42,197 nucleotides of DNA from the sequence record MN850568.1; one strand, 5' to 3'. Positions 3,404-21,181 of this stretch are shown here, piece after piece. Source of the stretch: Escherichia phage altidsur. Numbering within the stretch: position 1 is the first letter of the stretch; the number at the start of each line of letters is the position of its first letter. The position numbers and the translations under genes were made by a program. The notes under the pieces are model-generated. The model was given only the letters and a program-made list of their open reading frames with translations. It was not told the DNA's origin and did not search any database.

Positions 3404-5775
3404 TGGCGAACAGCTATAACACCTACGTGGCGAACGGGACGCAGACTGCGTTCCTCGTCACCTTTGAGCAGCGCGTATTTACGCAGATTCAGGTGTACCT
3501 CAACTCCACACTCGTGACGGAAGGGTACACCTACAACTCTGTGACCAAACAGATTGTCTTCTCGACAGCACCTGTCGCCGGGACAATCGTACGCCTGCAA
3601 CGCTACACCTCTGAGACGCTGCTTAACAAGTTTGGTCAGGACGCTGCCTTCACGGGCAGCAACCTCGACGAGAACTTCGAGCAGATTCTGTTTAAGGCTG
3701 AGGAAACTCAGGAGGCATGGCTCGCGCCGCTCGACCGAGCAGTCCGTGTCCCGAACTCCGAAGTCTCCATCAACGCATTACCGAACGTCGCTGGCCGCCG
3801 TAACAAGGCATTGGGCTTTGACAACGCTGGTCAGCCGTTCATGATTCCTCTGGTTGATATTCCTGACTCAGCTCTGGCCATTGCGCTGGCGATGAATGAC
3901 GGCGGTAAGTGGATTGGCACCCTTGGCGGTGGTACGTTCCTCGACCGTCAGGACACTGTGTGTCTGTCAGAGTTCACCAACAACACTGGCTATGCGTCCA
4001 TCGCTGCCGCTGTGCAGGCATGTTTCGACTATGCCAAGGCAAACGGTAAGGTTGTGGATGCACGCGGCTGGGAAGGCACTGTGGACTCCACGGTGACAAT
4101 GGATGGTATTGAGGTCGTCGGCGGTACGTGGCACGGTAAGGCAGATATTCGACTGATTGACTCAACGTTCCGCAACTTCAAGGCATCCACTGTGCGTGTG
4201 GCGTACTGGGGTGGCAAGGTTCGCATTGCTGACTATGAGTTCACCAGTGCGCCGAGCAACTCCAAAGTTACGTCAATCCTGTTCCAAGGCAACATCGCCG
4301 GGGGCAGCTACGTAATCGAGAACGGTATCCACCGTAACGGCAAGTTCGGTATTCTGCAACAGGGTACTGGTGAGGCTATCACCAATGGCATTATCCGCAA
4401 CGTCGCTATGATGGACATGATGGGTGATGGCATTGAGATGAACGTAATCAACAAGCACTATGACGGTGGCCTGCTGATTGAGAACATCTACCTTGAGAAT
4501 ATCGACGGCACCAACGCACCTATTCCACTGTCCAACTGGGGCATCGGTATCGGTATCGCTGGTCAAGGCCCGTTCGGTTGGGACGCTGCTGAGACTCAGT
4601 ACGCGAAGAACGTGACCGTGCGTAACGTCCATGCTCCGCGCGGTGTACGTCAGGTTGTCCACTTCGAAGTTACCCGCGACAGCGTGTGCGAGAACGTGGT
4701 CTGTAACCCTGACCTGTCCGTGTCCACTGGTACTGGCCTGTCTGCTGCTGGCGTAATCACGTACGGCTGCAAACGCATGACCATTGATGGCGTGGTTGGT
4801 GAGCCTATCAACACAGGTGCAACCTCCCCTAACGATATTCGTCTCGTTATGCTGGAGTGGGGTGCTAACCAAGCAGGTGCTGGCGGTACGCCGGGTGCTG
4901 CGTGTCCATCTTTTGACATGACCGTGCGCAACGTGCAGACCCGCACCGGGCGCTTCTATGCAGGTGTCGGCTCCGACGACGATAACACCAACACGTACCA
5001 CCTTGAAAACATTCACTGTTACAAGATGACGCTGTTCGGTGTGGCTACTCTGCTGAACATGACCAACGTTACTGGTGTCGTATTCGACGCAGTTGGCGAT
5101 GACTCCAGCGGCGGTACTTCGTCCAACGGTGTGTACCCGCGTAAGAAGACGTGCCTTAACATGGTGAACGTGAACTTCTACGGGCCGGGTATGACCGAGG
5201 GTGCGCTGTACAGTAAGGCTCGGTACTCGGACATCAGTACGCTGAACTCCAACGTCCGTGCAATCCCGTACACCAACATCCAAGGTAACGTTGGCGCTAT
5301 CCTGTCTCCAGTGAACCGCATCCTGACGCTGCCAAACAACTTGGCAACGCTGACAGGTGCTGAGTTCCCGACTGGTAAAGAGTTCCCGGAAGGTACTGTC
5401 CTGCTGAAAACTGATGGTTCTGGTGGTAACTTCATCGTCACCCAGTTTGGTGCCTACATCCCTAATGATGGCAACAACTTCAAGGTGCGTGCTGCTGCCG
5501 CTGGCCAGACGTATCTGGAGCAGAACCTGACTCCGGCTGGTACTCAGGCATCCACCTCGTGGCTGTACCACAAACCAATCTCTGCTGGCACCCGGTTGAA
5601 CATCCCCGGCGCTGGGCCGAGTGGCGGTACACTGACTGTGACGGTGGTGCGTGCTCCATATCAGGTGGACAACAACATCGGGAACCCGGTGCGCATCGAC
5701 ATCACACCGCCGCTGGTGACTGCTATCCCTGCCGGGACGCAGCTCGCCGCGACTTATCCGGTGGCTTACATCTAA
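3403..5775 (+). CDS. Tail fiber/tailspike protein with T7 gp17-like N-terminal anchor and a beta-helix (depolymerase-like) body
   Basis: The first ~150 aa resemble the conserved N-terminal adaptor of T7-type tail fibers by eye; the rest is Gly/Asn/Thr/Val-rich with repeated G-x-hydrophobic strands typical of right-handed beta-helix spikes; position after the internal virion proteins. Confidence 0.75.
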   Translation: MANSYNTYVANGTQTAFLVTFEQRVFTQIQVYLNSTLVTEGYTYNSVTKQIVFSTAPVAGTIVRLQRYTSETLLNKFGQDAAFTGSNLDENFEQILFKAEETQEAWLAPLDRAVRVPNSEVSINALPNVAGRRNKALGFDNAGQPFMIPLVDIPDSALAIALAMNDGGKWIGTLGGGTFLDRQDTVCLSEFTNNTGYASIAAAVQACFDYAKANGKVVDARGWEGTVDSTVTMDGIEVVGGTWHGKADIRLIDSTFRNFKASTVRVAYWGGKVRIADYEFTSAPSNSKVTSILFQGNIAGGSYVIENGIHRNGKFGILQQGTGEAITNGIIRNVAMMDMMGDGIEMNVINKHYDGGLLIENIYLENIDGTNAPIPLSNWGIGIGIAGQGPFGWDAAETQYAKNVTVRNVHAPRGVRQVVHFEVTRDSVCENVVCNPDLSVSTGTGLSAAGVITYGCKRMTIDGVVGEPINTGATSPNDIRLVMLEWGANQAGAGGTPGAACPSFDMTVRNVQTRTGRFYAGVGSDDDNTNTYHLENIHCYKMTLFGVATLLNMTNVTGVVFDAVGDDSSGGTSSNGVYPRKKTCLNMVNVNFYGPGMTEGALYSKARYSDISTLNSNVRAIPYTNIQGNVGAILSPVNRILTLPNNLATLTGAEFPTGKEFPEGTVLLKTDGSGGNFIVTQFGAYIPNDGNNFKVRAAAAGQTYLEQNLTPAGTQASTSWLYHKPISAGTRLNIPGAGPSGGTLTVTVVRAPYQVDNNIGNPVRIDITPPLVTAIPAGTQLAATYPVAYI

Positions 5776-10752: not shown

Positions 10753-10757
10753 TTATC

Positions 10758-10856
10758 TAATGATTACAGTAACTTATAACCTATCTGATAACGGTATTCT
10801 ATCCAGTGTTATGATTATCTAATCAAACTTTAATCCTAATGATTACAGTAACTTAT
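10758..10856. repeat. AT-rich direct repeats (20-bp TAATGATTACAGTAACTTAT at 10758-10777 and 10837-10856, plus duplicated ATTATCTAA)
   Basis: Exact 20-bp duplication 79 bp apart, read directly, immediately downstream of the A-depleted tract and the inverted promoter-like motif. Confidence 0.6.
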
Positions 10857-10877
10857 CACTTTTCTTGAAAATAATAC

Positions 10878-10907
10878 TTGCCAATCTGTTTTGGTTTATG
10901 CTGTAAT
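10878..10907 (+). promoter_or_regulatory. Host sigma70-type promoter candidate (TTGCCA-N18-TGTAAT)
   Basis: -35-like TTGCCA at 10878-10883 and the same TATGCTGTAAT -10 box as the next two promoters. Confidence 0.35.
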
Positions 10908-10984
10908 TCATCTCGCCGGACAACACAGCGTTAACGTGTTGGACGGTGTAGGACGGTAACACTGCTCTTTAACAATCTGGTGTG

Positions 10985-11013
10985 TTGACAAGGCAAGCTC
11001 ACTATGCTGTAAT
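10985..11013 (+). promoter_or_regulatory. Host sigma70-type early promoter (TTGACA-N17-TGTAAT)
   Basis: Perfect -35 TTGACA at 10985-10990, 17-nt spacer, TATGCTGTAAT box; one of three identically spaced copies upstream of the early region. Confidence 0.55.
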
Positions 11014-11121
11014 GCTTCCACGTCAGCCAGCAAGCTAAACAGTCATTGATAAAGACGTTAAAACACACGTAGGCAAGCTGGTACGGTTTAACTATCTCAG
11101 AACGGGCGCTGATTAAATCGG

Positions 11122-11150
11122 TTGACAGGATGAAATGAGTATGCTGTAAT
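11122..11150 (+). promoter_or_regulatory. Host sigma70-type early promoter (TTGACA-N17-TGTAAT)
   Basis: TTGACA at 11122-11127, 17-nt spacer, TATGCTGTAAT box at 11140-11150. Confidence 0.55.
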
Positions 11151-11201
11151 GCACACCAGATTGACAGGGCAGCAAGCCAGTCAGTCAGAAGTAAAAAGTA
11201 G

Positions 11202-11687: not shown

Positions 11688-12080
11688 ATGTACCGTATCT
11701 ATGCAAGCGCATATCGTCAGGGCAACGCTGAATGTGTTAATCTGGCGCTTCATTGCAAGGCACTGCGAACGGTGCAGGATATGTTCGGAGTGGTTCCGGT
11801 CACACTGACAGGCAAGTTCGACAATGCGTACGAGTTAAGCATGGTCTTTCCTGTCGATGGAATCTACGAAATCAGGCAGGCTGTTAAGCTGTTCTGTAAA
11901 GCATTCGAACAGGACTGCATCATGGTAGTGACCAAAGATGATGATGCAATCTTCATGGATTCACCATATCCGGGCAAGCCTGCTGGCAAGTTCGTCAGCA
12001 AGACTGAGGCCGAAATGGAAGCCGGGCAGCACACCGCTTGGACTTACGATGGTGAACAATTTTGGGTAGTGGAGGCGTAA
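11688..12080 (+). CDS. Early hypothetical protein, 130 aa
   Basis: First ORF after the ~450-nt leader; GGAGA RBS 8 nt upstream of the ATG. Confidence 0.55.
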   Translation: MYRIYASAYRQGNAECVNLALHCKALRTVQDMFGVVPVTLTGKFDNAYELSMVFPVDGIYEIRQAVKLFCKAFEQDCIMVVTKDDDAIFMDSPYPGKPAGKFVSKTEAEMEAGQHTAWTYDGEQFWVVEA

Positions 12081-13106: not shown

Positions 13107-13130
13107 AAGCCAGTGTCAAGGCGCTGGCTT
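13107..13130 (+). promoter_or_regulatory. Intergenic RNA hairpin (AAGCCAG-loop-CTGGCTT), part of the repeated hairpin + GGCAAT..TGCC module
   Basis: 7-bp perfect stem with 10-nt loop, followed by GGCAATTCTGCCCCAACC, RBS and ATG. Confidence 0.4.
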
Positions 13131-13168
13131 TATGGCAATTCTGCCCCAACCTATTCGGAGTATTATCC

Positions 13169-13869: not shown

Positions 13870-13893
13870 ACTGCCTCGTTGCGACGGGGCAGT
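13870..13893 (+). promoter_or_regulatory. Intergenic RNA hairpin (ACTGCCTCG-TTGCGA-CGGGGCAGT) of the repeated module
   Basis: 9-bp stem with one G-U wobble and the same TTGCGA loop as 13461-13484, followed by GGCAATCATGCC box. Confidence 0.4.
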
Positions 13894-13928
13894 GCGGCAA
13901 TCATGCCCCAACCTACTGAGGATTTAAT

Positions 13929-14204
13929 ATGTCCACTATCAATGTGTTTTCCCTGAACAACGGCGGTCTGGCTTTCATCGTTGGCGAGACTGTTGACAAT
14001 GCACCTTCACTGGGTGTGCAGCCGAAGCCGGACGCAAGCCATGACGAAGTGATTGGCGAAGTGCGCGAGGCGCTGGAAGACCTCGGCGGTATGCTGATTG
14101 CCATTCAGGGTGGCAAGCTGTCGGTTGAAAAGCTGAATGCACTGGAGCCTCGCTTCATCACCAGCTTTGAAGCTGACAACGTAGACGCGGCTGACTTCGA
14201 GTAA
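13929..14204 (+). CDS. Small acidic early protein, 91 aa
   Basis: ORF after the conserved module (CCAACCTACTGAGGATTTAATATG); acidic C-terminus. Confidence 0.6.
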   Translation: MSTINVFSLNNGGLAFIVGETVDNAPSLGVQPKPDASHDEVIGEVREALEDLGGMLIAIQGGKLSVEKLNALEPRFITSFEADNVDAADFE

Positions 14205-14483: not shown

Positions 14484-14507
14484 CAGCCCATCCATAGCGG
14501 TGGGCTG
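14484..14507 (+). promoter_or_regulatory. Intergenic RNA hairpin (CAGCCCA-loop-TGGGCTG) of the repeated module
   Basis: 7-bp perfect stem with 10-nt loop, followed by GGCAATCATGCC box, RBS and ATG. Confidence 0.4.
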
Positions 14508-14544
14508 TAGGGCAATCATGCCACAACTAACTGAGGGTTTTACC

Positions 14545-14829
14545 ATGGCTAAAGTAACTGCATACTACTCCGCACAAGAGAAAGACATCGTGGCTGTTGT
14601 TGGTGACGGCTTCGAAGAAGGCAACTATGCGCTGTGCATTTCCGGCTGCAAAGAAGTACCGAAGCTGAACACGGTTGATGATGCTGTGGCTGCGCTGCCG
14701 TCGCTGCAAGCTGACATCGAACGCATGGGTGAGCTGGCCTTCCTGCTGCACGGTGGTTCGCTGAACGCTACTGCTTCGGTTGACATGCCTGCCAAGGGCT
14801 ACGAAGAAGTCGGTAGCTTCGAGGTCTAA
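14545..14829 (+). CDS. Small acidic early protein, 94 aa
   Basis: Internal ATG of track ORF 14473..14829, directly after the conserved module (ACTGAGGGTTTTACCATG). Confidence 0.6.
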   Translation: MAKVTAYYSAQEKDIVAVVGDGFEEGNYALCISGCKEVPKLNTVDDAVAALPSLQADIERMGELAFLLHGGSLNATASVDMPAKGYEEVGSFEV

Positions 14830-14831
14830 GC

Positions 14832-15167
14832 ATGGCGTTGCATCCGGTCAAGGTATTCCGTGGGCCTGACATTACGGATGGGCAAGACGTGGCGGTACTG
14901 CTGTACCGCCTGCCCGATGGTCAGGAAGGGCTGGTCGTCATCGACCAGATTGAAATCTTAGGGCAGCAGATGTTGACGAGTGAGGCGAGCGACGAGCAAA
15001 TCATCGAACGCTTCAAGGCGTACGCCGGGCGCAGGCCATTCATCATCGACCTGCTGAACGAGCTGCACTACAGCGCCGCGCCGCTGGCTATCCAGACGTG
15101 GCTCAAGATTCTCACTCCCATCTACGAGGGTGAGATGTATCTGTTTGGTATTGACAACGAGGAATAA
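14832..15167 (+). CDS. Early hypothetical protein, 111 aa
   Basis: Tightly packed ORF on the same strand, 2 nt after the upstream stop. Confidence 0.55.
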   Translation: MALHPVKVFRGPDITDGQDVAVLLYRLPDGQEGLVVIDQIEILGQQMLTSEASDEQIIERFKAYAGRRPFIIDLLNELHYSAAPLAIQTWLKILTPIYEGEMYLFGIDNEE

Positions 15168-15169
15168 TC

Positions 15170-15415
15170 ATGGGTAAGAAAGTAACTTTGAAAGTAGTTA
15201 AGCGCCGCCCCGGATTCACCGTGGGTACTGAGTACCCGGCAGTGCTGATTGCTGAGGGCGAGAATCTGGTCAAGGCATTCCCTAAGCTGGCCTCGGTGTA
15301 CGGCAAGGGCGCTGAGGATGTGGCAGGCTACGAAACTGTAGCCGTACTGGACGAGCGTGGCCATCCGTGTGACTTCTTCACGCAGGGCTATCACGACTGG
15401 TTCGAAATCGTTTAA
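15170..15415 (+). CDS. Small early protein, 81 aa; paralog-like to 15446..15688
   Basis: Shares an overall pattern and C-terminal H..x..EIV ending with the next ORF (HDWFEIV vs HTIEIVE). Confidence 0.6.
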   Translation: MGKKVTLKVVKRRPGFTVGTEYPAVLIAEGENLVKAFPKLASVYGKGAEDVAGYETVAVLDERGHPCDFFTQGYHDWFEIV

Positions 15416-15445
15416 CCAACCACCTAACCAAGAGAGGGTAACAAC

Positions 15446-15688
15446 ATGGCACGTTCTATTCTGATTCGCATCATCGGCCACACCGCACAGCCGTCCCATT
15501 TCTCCGGCGCAGTGCGTGACACTACCATCGGTAAAGAGTACGCCGCTCTGCTGGTTGAAGCTGGCGAAGAAATCCCGGACGGCTGGGAAACTGACGAGCA
15601 AGGCATCGCGTTTGTTGATGACGTGGGTGATGACTGCTTCGCATACAGCTCGGCGCACCTCGGACACACCATCGAAATCGTCGAGTGA
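15446..15688 (+). CDS. Small early protein, 80 aa; paralog-like to 15170..15415
   Basis: AGAGGG RBS; tandem arrangement with a similar C-terminus. Confidence 0.6.
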   Translation: MARSILIRIIGHTAQPSHFSGAVRDTTIGKEYAALLVEAGEEIPDGWETDEQGIAFVDDVGDDCFAYSSAHLGHTIEIVE

Positions 15689-15744
15689 TAAGCTACAGCC
15701 TCTGCTTGCGGGGGCTGTGTCATTATCAAACGAGCGAGGTGAGC

Positions 15745-15897
15745 ATGAGCGGCAGCACATACAATGCGCACGCCAACCAGATAAGCTACGCAGGGTACTG
15801 CGCACTGGGCGGGGCGAGCAACCCGAACCTAATGAGCCGGGCGGTGTATCTCGGCGGTCACTACATGCACCACGAATACTATTTAATCAGGGGGTAA
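15745..15897 (+). CDS. Small hypothetical protein, 50 aa
   Basis: Internal ATG with GAGGTGAGC RBS inside track ORF 15685..15897; preceded by a hairpin-like inverted repeat at about 15702-15725. Confidence 0.35.
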   Translation: MSGSTYNAHANQISYAGYCALGGASNPNLMSRAVYLGGHYMHHEYYLIRG

Positions 15898-15899
15898 CT

Positions 15900-16184
15900 A
15901 TGGTACTGGCATCTGAAAGTATTATCGAACAGGCTGGCGCAATCCGTGAAGCTGAGCATCTGCGTGGGGTAGCCGCAACGCTCGGTCACTGTGCTGGCAA
16001 CGGCGGTCTGCGTGGGCATTCAGTCGGCGGCGTATTTCCCTGCGTGATATTCTCGCGGGGCAACCCACATGAACACCTCGACTGGTGCTTCCTCGCACCG
16101 AACGGCGACGAGTTCGACGGCTTCGTAAGTTATGAAGATGCGTATGCAGCCGCGCAGGTATGGCTGGAACAACGAGAGGTGTGA
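15900..16184 (+). CDS. Early hypothetical protein, 94 aa
   Basis: Internal ATG of track ORF 15516..16184 with AGGGGG RBS; the upstream part of that ORF overlaps other genes out of frame. Confidence 0.5.
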   Translation: MVLASESIIEQAGAIREAEHLRGVAATLGHCAGNGGLRGHSVGGVFPCVIFSRGNPHEHLDWCFLAPNGDEFDGFVSYEDAYAAAQVWLEQREV

Positions 16185-18568: not shown

Positions 18569-19834
18569 GTGCTTGACAAGCTGTTGTTAACGGTGATGCG
18601 CGAGCGCGGGAAGTACAACTCCCTGCGACACGCCATCCCGGAAGATACAATGAGCCAGACCACGGGCTATATGCTGCGTGCTTACGGCTCATACTTTGAC
18701 GCGTTCCCGGACAGTGACTTCATTGACATTGAGACACTGGGTACGCATGTTCGTTTGAAGACAGGCAGCACGCCTGAACAGATGGCAGCCTTCGATTCGT
18801 TGTGCGCTCAGCTCAAAGAGTACAAGCCGACGAAGGAACAGAAGGAGGGCATCCTTGACCAGCTCGTAGAGTTGGACACTGCTGGTCGTGCGAACCTGCT
18901 AATGCAGAGGTACGACAATGGTGAAGAACTGGATATTATCTATGAGCTTGGCCGTCTGGCTGAGGGCGCACGCCGCAGTCGGGGTCAATCATCCGTTACC
19001 GATTACGTCGATGACGATGTTGTGGACATTATTAATCGGACTGATGATGACCAAGGCTTTAAGTTCGGTCTCATGTGCCTGCAAGATAGCGTACGCGTAC
19101 TGCTTCCCGGCGACTCCGTTGCAATCGCTGCCCGACCTGACAGTGGGAAGACCAGCTTCATCGCGTTTAACCTTACGCGAATGGCGGCGACAGCAGCGAA
19201 GCTCTATCCGGGCAGACCAATCCTGTGGTTCAACAACGAAGGGCAGGGCATCAACATCATCCCGCGCATCTATCAGGCGGCGCTCAACTGTACGCTCCCG
19301 GAACTGAAAGAGCTGGGTGAGGACAGGAGCAAGCTGCACGCTGCGTATGCCAAGGCACTGGGTGCGCCAGCCAATGTGATTCGTGTGAAGGATATGCACG
19401 GTGCAACGCTGGCGAAAGCTGAGCAGGTTATCGAAGCGATGAACCCGTGCATTGTGGTGTGGGATATGCTTGCCAACTTCAAGCTGTCTGTGTCTGACCC
19501 GTCCAGTAACAAGGCGAGTCAGGTCGAGCAGCTATGGCAGGAGGTACGTGAGCTGGCTGTGCGTCACAACTTCGTGTCGCTGGCTACGGTTCAGGTATCT
19601 GCTGATGGTGCCGACGATATGTTCCCGGCACTGGATGCACTCAAGGATTCCAAGACTGGTATCCAAGGGGCGACTGATGTTATCGTGATGCTCGGCAGTG
19701 TGGATGACCCATCACTGGCAGCACGGCGCGGTGTCAGTACGCCGAAGAACAAACGCCAGATTGCTGGGCGTCCAAGCAACGTGCGGTCACAGGTACACTT
19801 CTTTGCCGACCGCTGCCAATACGAGGATATGTAA
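18569..19834 (+). CDS. DNA helicase (DnaB/T7 gp4 helicase-domain family), 421 aa
   Basis: Walker A (ARPDSGKTSF); Walker B-like IVVWDML and further downstream helicase-like segments; GTG start overlapping the upstream stop. Confidence 0.8.
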   Translation: MLDKLLLTVMRERGKYNSLRHAIPEDTMSQTTGYMLRAYGSYFDAFPDSDFIDIETLGTHVRLKTGSTPEQMAAFDSLCAQLKEYKPTKEQKEGILDQLVELDTAGRANLLMQRYDNGEELDIIYELGRLAEGARRSRGQSSVTDYVDDDVVDIINRTDDDQGFKFGLMCLQDSVRVLLPGDSVAIAARPDSGKTSFIAFNLTRMAATAAKLYPGRPILWFNNEGQGINIIPRIYQAALNCTLPELKELGEDRSKLHAAYAKALGAPANVIRVKDMHGATLAKAEQVIEAMNPCIVVWDMLANFKLSVSDPSSNKASQVEQLWQEVRELAVRHNFVSLATVQVSADGADDMFPALDALKDSKTGIQGATDVIVMLGSVDDPSLAARRGVSTPKNKRQIAGRPSNVRSQVHFFADRCQYEDM

Positions 19835-20196
19835 TGAGCCATTTAAAGGTAGGCGACCGAGTAGTAAACATTGATGCACGCAGTGTGCATTACGGTGCGA
19901 AGGGTACTGTGGTTGACATCAACGACAAGTACGTGAGCATTGACCGCGATGATGGTGCGCGTGGTTCTGGTATCAGCGGCTCGTGGACTGCACGCCATGC
20001 GTCGTGGGCGCGGATTGGTGACGCGCCGCATGTGGCAGCCACGCCGGAACCGGAGGCGACTGCCGAGGACTGGAGTTACGCTGAGGCTGAGCGTCTGTAC
20101 CAAGCGGCGTGCGATGCCATGTCAGTGTACAACCAGTACGTTGAGCGTAAGCCAACGACCAGCTACCTGCCCGGCAGCGTGCCGAGTAAGTGGTGA
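19834..20196 (+). CDS. Hypothetical protein, 120 aa
   Basis: TAATG-coupled ORF; N-terminal KVGDRVV...GTVVDI resembles a small beta-barrel fold. Confidence 0.5.
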   Translation: MSHLKVGDRVVNIDARSVHYGAKGTVVDINDKYVSIDRDDGARGSGISGSWTARHASWARIGDAPHVAATPEPEATAEDWSYAEAERLYQAACDAMSVYNQYVERKPTTSYLPGSVPSKW

Positions 20197-20360: not shown

Positions 20361-20508
20361 GCAAGCAACCATCCGGGCGCAGTACCGGAAGGGTGATGCG
20401 TTCCGTGGTGCTGAGGCGCTGGCCGAACGTTTCAATGTGCCGCCTGCTGATGTGGTGGCAGTGGTGAACTTCACTTATCGCAAGGGGAAACAGAAGCATG
20501 ATAAGTAA
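20317..20508 (+). CDS. Small basic hypothetical protein, 63 aa
   Basis: ORF in the gap before the nucleotidyltransferase-like gene; overlaps the zinc-ribbon ORF, so at most one reading may be correct here. Confidence 0.35.
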   Translation: MEERTYRAAPLNQREQATIRAQYRKGDAFRGAEALAERFNVPPADVVAVVNFTYRKGKQKHDK

Positions 20509-21181
20509 TGCAGAAGTCAAGCGCGTATGGGCAGAGGACATCTGCCGTCTGCTGCAATCACATGAGCTGAACTTTGTGGTTGCCGGGGGAGGGGCAAGGG
20601 ATACAGCGCTGGGTGTTGAGCCGAAGGACTATGACATCGTGGTCTTCGGTTGGGGTGGGGATGTAAGCCGCGTGGTCGGTAGATTGGAATGGTTGGACAC
20701 CAACCTCGAAGCGTATGCCAAGCAGCACAACCTGCCGTATGAGTACATGCCAAGCTACCACGACGCAGCCGAGGGCGGCGACTTCGGTTCCCGTCTGTAC
20801 GGTGTGTTCAAGCTCGGCCCGGTTGACATCATCATTAGTAAATGTGGCTGCTGGTCACAGGTGCTGAGCGAGTTCGACTTCAACCTGAACCAGTTCTACT
20901 TCCCGTCCAGTATCCCGCGATACTCCGGGCAGTACAGCCGTGACCCCGGTGAGTTCATGGCGTACCCGTACGAGCCGAAGCTAACAGCCGAGGACGTGCA
21001 GTGGTATCCGGCGCTGGCCAGTCTGGTTGAAAGCTACGACGACCTGCTGACTCTCCGTGTCTGCCGACCGGATGCCAGCCTGAGTCGTGTGGCCTACATG
21101 CTGGAGAAGCACGAGACACACCGCGAGCGCATCGAAGCATACGTCAATCGTATGCCAGACCATTTGGGTGGCACAGCATAG
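20498..21181 (+). CDS. Pol-beta-superfamily nucleotidyltransferase-like protein (CCA-adding/poly(A) polymerase head-domain motif), 227 aa
   Basis: Motif VAGGGARDTALGVEPKDYDIVVF fits the GGxVRD...DxD signature of class II nucleotidyltransferases, read by eye. Confidence 0.5.
   Translation: MISNAEVKRVWAEDICRLLQSHELNFVVAGGGARDTALGVEPKDYDIVVFGWGGDVSRVVGRLEWLDTNLEAYAKQHNLPYEYMPSYHDAAEGGDFGSRLYGVFKLGPVDIIISKCGCWSQVLSEFDFNLNQFYFPSSIPRYSGQYSRDPGEFMAYPYEPKLTAEDVQWYPALASLVESYDDLLTLRVCRPDASLSRVAYMLEKHETHRERIEAYVNRMPDHLGGTA

Follow-up and report, generated by a model that had tools for sequence, protein, structure and literature searches.

In phages of the T7 group, Ocr/Gp0.3, Gp5.9 and Gp2 are small acidic inhibitors of host enzymes that are made early and are non-essential, and in SH3 folds the ligand groove is flanked by two loops, termed RT and n-Src. 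Here, we analyzed two adjacent genes, A (15170-15415) and B (15446-15688), both on the (+) strand of Escherichia phage altidsur (MN850568.1; the 42,197 nt analyzed are referred to as the window), and found that their products belong to a single family of SH3-like small beta-barrels. The closest known structures include the SH3 domain of RecD (5ld2_D), CarD (4l5g), the C-terminal domain of UvrD (7egs_B) and the KOW domains of NusG/Spt5, that is, small barrels of the SH3-like, Tudor or KOW kind. Gp54 of Escherichia phage Bas11 (PDB 9axb) is also among them, but it is shorter (64 amino acids [aa]), lacks the family motifs and has no detectable sequence homology to the family. The T7-group proteins resemble A and B by functional analogy only (small early proteins, acidic for the most part and non-essential, of phages with an RNA polymerase of their own), with no sequence or fold relationship, no Pfam ocr match and no PDB match.

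An earlier interpretation of the DNA letters (the sequence-only reading) had described a tandem, paralog-like pair of 80-aa early proteins with similar C-terminal endings, attributed it to local duplication followed by divergence, and called for a pairwise alignment, structure predictions and a survey of copy number in related phages. The explanation that we favor, with a probability of roughly 55% for the whole of it, is that A and B are anciently diverged paralogs of a phage-restricted SH3-like family (roughly 70-85 residues) that are exchanged as cassettes and that probably serve as binders of host proteins.

Homology and shared fold of A and B

A and B are co-oriented open reading frames (ORFs) lying exactly where the sequence-only reading had placed them; the length of 80 aa given there for both applies to B, while A has 81 aa. 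Each start codon is preceded, at 6-8 nt, by a Shine-Dalgarno sequence (GAGGA for A and GAGGG for B), and A begins 2 nt past the stop codon of a 111-aa gene. Orthologues of A in aldrigsur, HHU8 and LF82-23 are 80-85% identical to it, and those of B are 80-98% identical. Since the ratios of nonsynonymous to synonymous substitution rates (dN/dS) in these orthologue comparisons are 0.10-0.25 for A and 0.05-0.31 for B, with dS of up to 1.9, both frames are real and under purifying selection. Two long overlapping ORFs, at 15122-15805 on the (−) strand and 15516-16184 on the (+) strand, were rejected as genes, as conservation and dN/dS favor the A and B frames. A 123-aa protein from a 42,472-bp Logan contig (P0017) is a B gene that shifts, after residue 37, into the frame of the spurious ORF at 15516-16184; either a frameshift has turned B into a pseudogene in a sister phage or the sequence there was misassembled.

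The pairwise evidence for homology is weak but real. Specifically, BLASTP aligned 17 residues of A and B (TVGTEYPAVLIAEGENL and TIGKEYAALLVEAGEEI, respectively) with eight identities and an E-value of 4e-4. The Smith-Waterman local score was matched by 4 of 5,000 shuffles (z = 4.9), the end-gap-free global score by 1 of 5,000 (z = 5.3), and the local score at a lower gap-open cost (−8) by none of 5,000 (z = 5.4), so that the alignment called for by the sequence-only reading does reveal similarity above chance. The evidence at the family level is much stronger. The A orthologues aligned to the group of B and two further subtypes, C and D (see below), over 55 columns by hhalign (probability of 95.6%; E = 1.3e-8). 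A hidden Markov model (HMM) built without A-type sequences retrieved A as its sole other match among 549 stop-to-stop ORFs of the window (E = 7.7e-4; next match, E = 2.2), with B, itself in the training set, at E = 5e-37, and the reciprocal search with the A-type profile reached the B side at E = 3e-3. An A-like protein found by exhaustive search, P0084, bridges the two (E = 9e-17 to A and 2e-7 to B); it carries a typical ADTTVGKEYD motif together with the GHPCD hairpin of A and a helical insertion resembling that of A. A and B are thus homologous, only distantly, and the pair of paralogs proposed earlier is borne out by BLASTP, shuffles, hhalign, the A-free HMM and P0084, as well as by a shared fold.

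AlphaFold2 yielded confident models for both proteins, with predicted local distance difference test (pLDDT) values of 93.2 for A and 89.6 for B. The model of A contains strands at residues 3-9, 21-27, 56-60, 66-70 and 78-80 and helices at 33-36 and 38-44; that of B contains strands at 3-9, 31-37, 53-57, 63-67 and 76-78. The order of the five strands is identical in the two SH3-like barrels, a comparison to be read with the fact that the alignments behind both models mix the A and B groups. The strands are antiparallel and follow the SH3 order, and the structural neighbors are SH3, Tudor or KOW domains. Searches of BFVD with the two models returned common neighbors (glasur, VLC4, A0A6C6XYR7 and A0A6B9WNV3). 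At the sequence level, Pfam SH3 models gave no match to A or B at E ≤ 1, and a profile search of PDB sequences gave two chance matches only, one of them RCC1-like. The C-terminal resemblance that had first drawn attention to the pair (...YHDWFEIV in A and ...GHTIEIVE in B) was read correctly, and it corresponds to the last beta strand, (F/I)E(I/L)V(E), conserved in the whole family.

Family extent, motifs and the divergence of A

A profile search of 1.84 billion representative proteins recovered 136 clusters at E ≤ 1e-3. Nearly all members are stand-alone proteins of 68-90 residues; five (P0020, P0024, P0034, P0066 and P0147) are fused tandem two-domain proteins, and in a few others the domain forms the N-terminal part of an anonymous protein of 266-333 aa in which no Pfam domain was found. 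Two further hits, P0143 and P0144, proved to be spurious, being large fn3/SLH repeat proteins. Beyond Bonnellvirus, a member is encoded directly ahead of the primase in Klebsiella Drulisvirus VLC4, and another, in the phi92-like phage vB_Eco_PATM, is homologous to phi92 gp183 (annotated Phi92_gp183); the members in these two phage groups are B/C/D-like. A scan of IMG/VR with one family alignment added two loci only. The P0084 cluster (P0150-P0153) has database entries named 'hypothetical protein' under assemblies of Cutibacterium acnes, Bacillus paranthracis and Salmonella, and it occurs on 62 contigs, which looks like phage contamination of bacterial assemblies.

The family consensus, RDtTvGKvYdA...GE.D.dG...F.DDvGD.V...fE.Ve, contains two conserved motifs. 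Among 130 sequences, the D, G and Y of motif 1 are conserved in about 90% and the T following the D in about 80%, while in motif 2 the D, D and G are conserved in about 90% and the final D in about 80%. The family is acidic, with a median isoelectric point (pI) of 4.5 and a pI above 6 in only 5 of 128 members.

Existing annotation covers this family in fragments. Pfam and NCBIfam models gave no meaningful match to it, and the source names of ten representative clusters were all 'hypothetical'. B matches phrog_17459 (E = 2.3e-7; residues 20-63) and a C-type paralog matches phrog_23195 (E = 1.3e-16); neither A (at E ≤ 0.1) nor the D type has a PHROG match. These two PHROGs and phrog_34652 comprise the same kind of small early enterobacterial phage proteins with no assigned function, so that the PHROG classification divides the family into several unlinked groups and leaves the A and D types uncovered. 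The present analysis places these separate hypothetical groups, from three PHROGs and from the A and D types, in a single family whose fold is modeled with confidence and whose motif is clear. Among PADLOC defence HMMs, the only match was a weak one to AbiEi (E = 0.026) in 1 of 16 members, with none for A. Literature searches on Bonnellvirus, J8-65, LIMEzero and early-gene paralogs returned no functional work on the family proteins, and the genomic context of distant members (short contigs or anonymous small-gene arrays) revealed no functional association.

Judging from the motifs, B is a textbook family member and A a degenerate outlier. B has both motifs in full (RDTTIGKEY and FVDDVGD). A keeps motif 1 in part (RD is missing, T.G.EY is retained) along with the GE of the family pattern, and its motif 2 is degraded to DERGH (LDERGH), where the family has DDxGD. 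In addition, A is near-neutral (pI 6.1) whereas B is acidic (pI 4.4), about 10 residues have been lost from the first loop of A, between strands 1 and 2, and an insertion between strands 2 and 3 is modeled as two short helices at the position of the SH3 n-Src loop. These two loops, RT-like and n-Src-like, are the least conserved regions across the family.

Cassette exchange, proposed role and rival explanations

The region is 84-97% identical to that of Bonnellvirus coliphages (Autographivirales) such as aldrigsur, LF82-23, megetsur and HHU8. Bonnellviruses have been described as differing 'primarily in small hypothetical genes' (Olsen et al. 2020, PMC7552041). We defined the slot as the interval between the conserved 111-aa and 50-aa genes (Table 1) and determined its contents by HMM scans of fetched loci. 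Besides A and B, sister phages carry subtypes B' (aldrigsur), C (aldrigsur, megetsur and mellemsur) and D (HHU8, glasur, usur, Kc261 and ROV85). The slot holds A and B in the window; A, an unrelated 88-aa gene and B in LF82-23; A and, about 280 nt downstream, B in an IMG/VR locus (L016); B', A and C in aldrigsur; A and D in HHU8; B and C in megetsur and mellemsur; B alone in Ec1-ASingh; D alone in glasur, usur, Kc261, ROV85 and the L017 locus; and no family gene in smaasur or J8-65. In a 43-kb phage that is less closely related (L022 and L023), this slot has the A-like P0084 as its only member, and two other loci (L009 and L010) have two non-adjacent members apiece. The survey of related phages thus revealed 0-3 copies per slot, drawn from four subtypes (A, B/B', C and D) in varied combinations and orders. 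As the slots of smaasur and J8-65 are empty, the family is dispensable on E. coli K-12.

The exchange has left traces in the DNA. BLASTN identity stops at the cassette edges, and recombination breakpoints lie inside genes. Downstream of A in HHU8 (L003, about 3602-3680), the A-B spacer is still present, followed by a truncated start of B (12 or 16 codons, depending on the count) that runs into a stop (MARSILIRIIGHNINL) ahead of the D cassette; on its sequence, this remnant is a scar of the recombination that replaced B. Slot cassettes are exchanged, added or deleted by homologous recombination, partly within the paralogs themselves.

These observations bear on the origin of the pair. A recent tandem duplication in this lineage with rapid divergence, close to what the sequence-only reading had suggested, would fit two adjacent, co-oriented genes of near-equal length with homologous N- and C-termini, and the fused two-domain members show that tandem duplication does occur in the family. 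However, we found no DNA-level repeat or other nucleotide similarity between the two genes, and A is equidistant, at 17-28% identity, from B and every other subtype, which points away from a sister grouping of A and B. A-like and B-like subfamilies also occur separately, each alone, in distant phages, and order and partners vary among close relatives (B'-A-C, A-X-B, A-D and B-C, where X is the unrelated gene of LF82-23). Local duplication in this phage is therefore very unlikely, and old paralogs shuffled by recombination are favored by the missing DNA repeat, the equidistance of A, the separate subfamilies, the varied slots and the HHU8 remnant. That A and B are unrelated ORFans with chance or compositional similarity draws on the mere 17 residues aligned by BLASTP; the shuffles, leave-one-out HMMs, hhalign result (E = 1.3e-8), P0084, AlphaFold2 topologies and common structural neighbors effectively refute it.

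As to function, A and B lie past sigma70-like promoters (about 10.98-11.15 kb) and the S-adenosylmethionine (SAM) lyase gene (11688-12080) and ahead of the primase/helicase genes (from about 17.9 kb). This is the position of an early region, so the label 'early' used in the sequence-only reading holds as a statement of place, from which their timing as early genes is inferred; a genome-wide repeat search found no phage promoter consensus that would time expression. The dispensable, variable slot and the mostly acidic proteins in it make a role in takeover or anti-defence plausible. In the mechanism that we propose, the small proteins would be made early from transcripts of the host RNA polymerase and would bind host proteins stoichiometrically, for takeover or counter-defence; the conserved barrel would be the scaffold, and the variable RT-like and n-Src-like loops would set target specificity. 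Since the differing loops flank the groove in SH3 folds and vary most within the family, A and B may have different binding partners; given its differences in the two loops, charge and the strand 3-4 hairpin (DDxGD in the family), A probably binds another partner instead of backing up B. Taken jointly, the claim that they are early accessory host-factor binders with loop-encoded specificity, of which A has diverged to another partner, seems to us evenly balanced between right and wrong.

Two other readings of function were weighed against this proposal. A and B could be two half-units of one functional protein, that is, a heterodimer, as the fused two-domain proteins of other phages and the joint presence of A and B in the window, LF82-23 and L016 might suggest; we regard this as unlikely, because HHU8 pairs A with D, megetsur and mellemsur have B and C without A, and Ec1-ASingh (B), glasur (D) and L022 (A-like) have a single family gene each. 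Alternatively, acidic members such as B could mimic DNA and thereby inhibit restriction enzymes, RecBCD or other host enzymes that bind DNA, in the manner of T7 Ocr and Gp5.9. The charge of B (net about −11) and the low family median pI are in line with this, and the early region already begins with an anti-restriction SAM lyase. However, neither by sequence nor by fold was a match to proteins of the Ocr, ArdA or Gp5.9 type found, A is near-neutral, and the best-conserved residues form a compact loop motif instead of a phosphate-like charge array, which leaves DNA mimicry just as unlikely as the heterodimer. A bolder version of the host-binder proposal, in which the family is a previously unrecognised modular counter-defence or takeover scaffold, retargeted by two hypervariable loops and swapped at a dedicated hairpin-flanked slot, with A and B neutralising two host factors or forming a heterodimer, strikes us as doubtful.

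As it stands, the locus is an ordinary, tidy case of accessory-gene turnover in a phage early region that would not surprise a specialist; its value lies in the extension of an unannotated family and in an easy experimental system. Near-identical coliphages that grow on K-12 and carry 0, 1, 2 or 3 cassettes in one slot form a compact natural experiment in which gene swaps could test function. Should the proteins prove to be inhibitors of host factors or defence, the contrast between A and B (the same barrel with other loops, charge and hairpin) would show how specificity is encoded.

Features of the locus and its surroundings

The coordinates of the genes, motifs and slot boundaries are collected in Table 1.

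Table 1. Features in and around the A/B slot, in window coordinates
Feature	Position	Strand	Description
Left slot boundary	14832..15167	+	Conserved 111-aa gene; directly upstream of the first cassette in all examined Bonnellvirus relatives but J8-65
Gene A	15170..15415	+	81 aa; divergent member of the SH3-like barrel family; pI 6.1 (near-neutral)
A-specific insertion	15263..15313	+	17 residues (32-48), NLVKAFPKLASVYGKGA; from family alignments and the AlphaFold2 model
A-B spacer	15416..15445	+	30 nt; holds the ribosome-binding site of B, AGAGAGGG
Gene B	15446..15688	+	80 aa; typical acidic family member; pI 4.4, net charge about −11
Motif 1 in B (RDTTIGKEY)	15515..15541	+	Residues 24-32; end of the first long loop and start of strand 2
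Motif 2 in B (DDVGD)	15617..15631	+	Residues 58-62; hairpin joining strands 3 and 4
Stem-loop	15686..15728	+	Lower stem starts in the B stop codon; marks the right edge of the slot
Right slot boundary	15745..15897	+	Conserved 50-aa gene; directly after the 111-aa gene in smaasur (empty slot)

The stem-loop at the right edge of the slot has a GC-rich upper stem of 11 bp and an A/U lower stem, and its RNA is predicted to fold at −26.3 kcal/mol (z = −2.3). In all relatives, it is found behind the last family gene, and in HHU8, glasur, usur and Kc261 a second copy lies past the gene that comes next (for example, at 3936-3995 and 4240-4298 of L003 and at 4006-4065 and 4310-4370 of L008). Across nine distinct copies, 90.7% of cells are paired, with one compensatory change from A-U to U-A and several changes from G-U to G-C. 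It has no U-tract and no Rfam match, and scanning the whole window for Rfam families and tRNAs gave no hits. By analogy with the early mRNAs of T7, the stem-loop could serve as a site for RNase III or for mRNA stabilisation; as a recombination boundary, it could also supply the homology used in cassette exchange.

Several other features lie near the early genes. A repeat cluster precedes them at 10757-11155 and includes a 30-nt direct repeat (10757-10786 and 10836-10865). Two or three strong sigma70-like promoters (TGC, then GTTGACA-N17-TGTAAT), which a simple promoter scan missed, are located at 10984-11015 and 11121-11152, with a related TATGCTGTAAT nearby at 10897-10912. A 39-nt intergenic repeat, GGGCnGTnnGGCAATCATGCCnCAAC...CTGAGGnTTT, occurs directly upstream of three early genes (13125-13163, 13887-13925 and 14502-14540); its copies are 67-82% identical and include a small hairpin and a ribosome-binding site. 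Two acidic early proteins encoded at 13929-14204 (91 aa) and 14545-14829 (94 aa) are a candidate second paralog pair with a common ...LGG/MG.L.F.L.GG.L... pattern: hhalign of the orthologue sets gave 68% (E = 4.7e-5), BLASTP gave no alignment, and glasur has two copies of the first type.

Farther downstream, the 120-aa protein encoded after the helicase gene (19834-20196) has a sub-threshold match to Pfam SH3_12 (Xrn1 SH3-like; E = 6e-5), its 23.3 bits falling short of the cut-off of 26.2. Directly before the DNA polymerase, related Bonnellvirus-like contigs carry a gene with a weak or faint Pfam Gad2 (anti-Gabija) match (L009, 10820-11446; L023, 11679-12252); the window gene at the equivalent position, 20498-21181, has no Pfam match.
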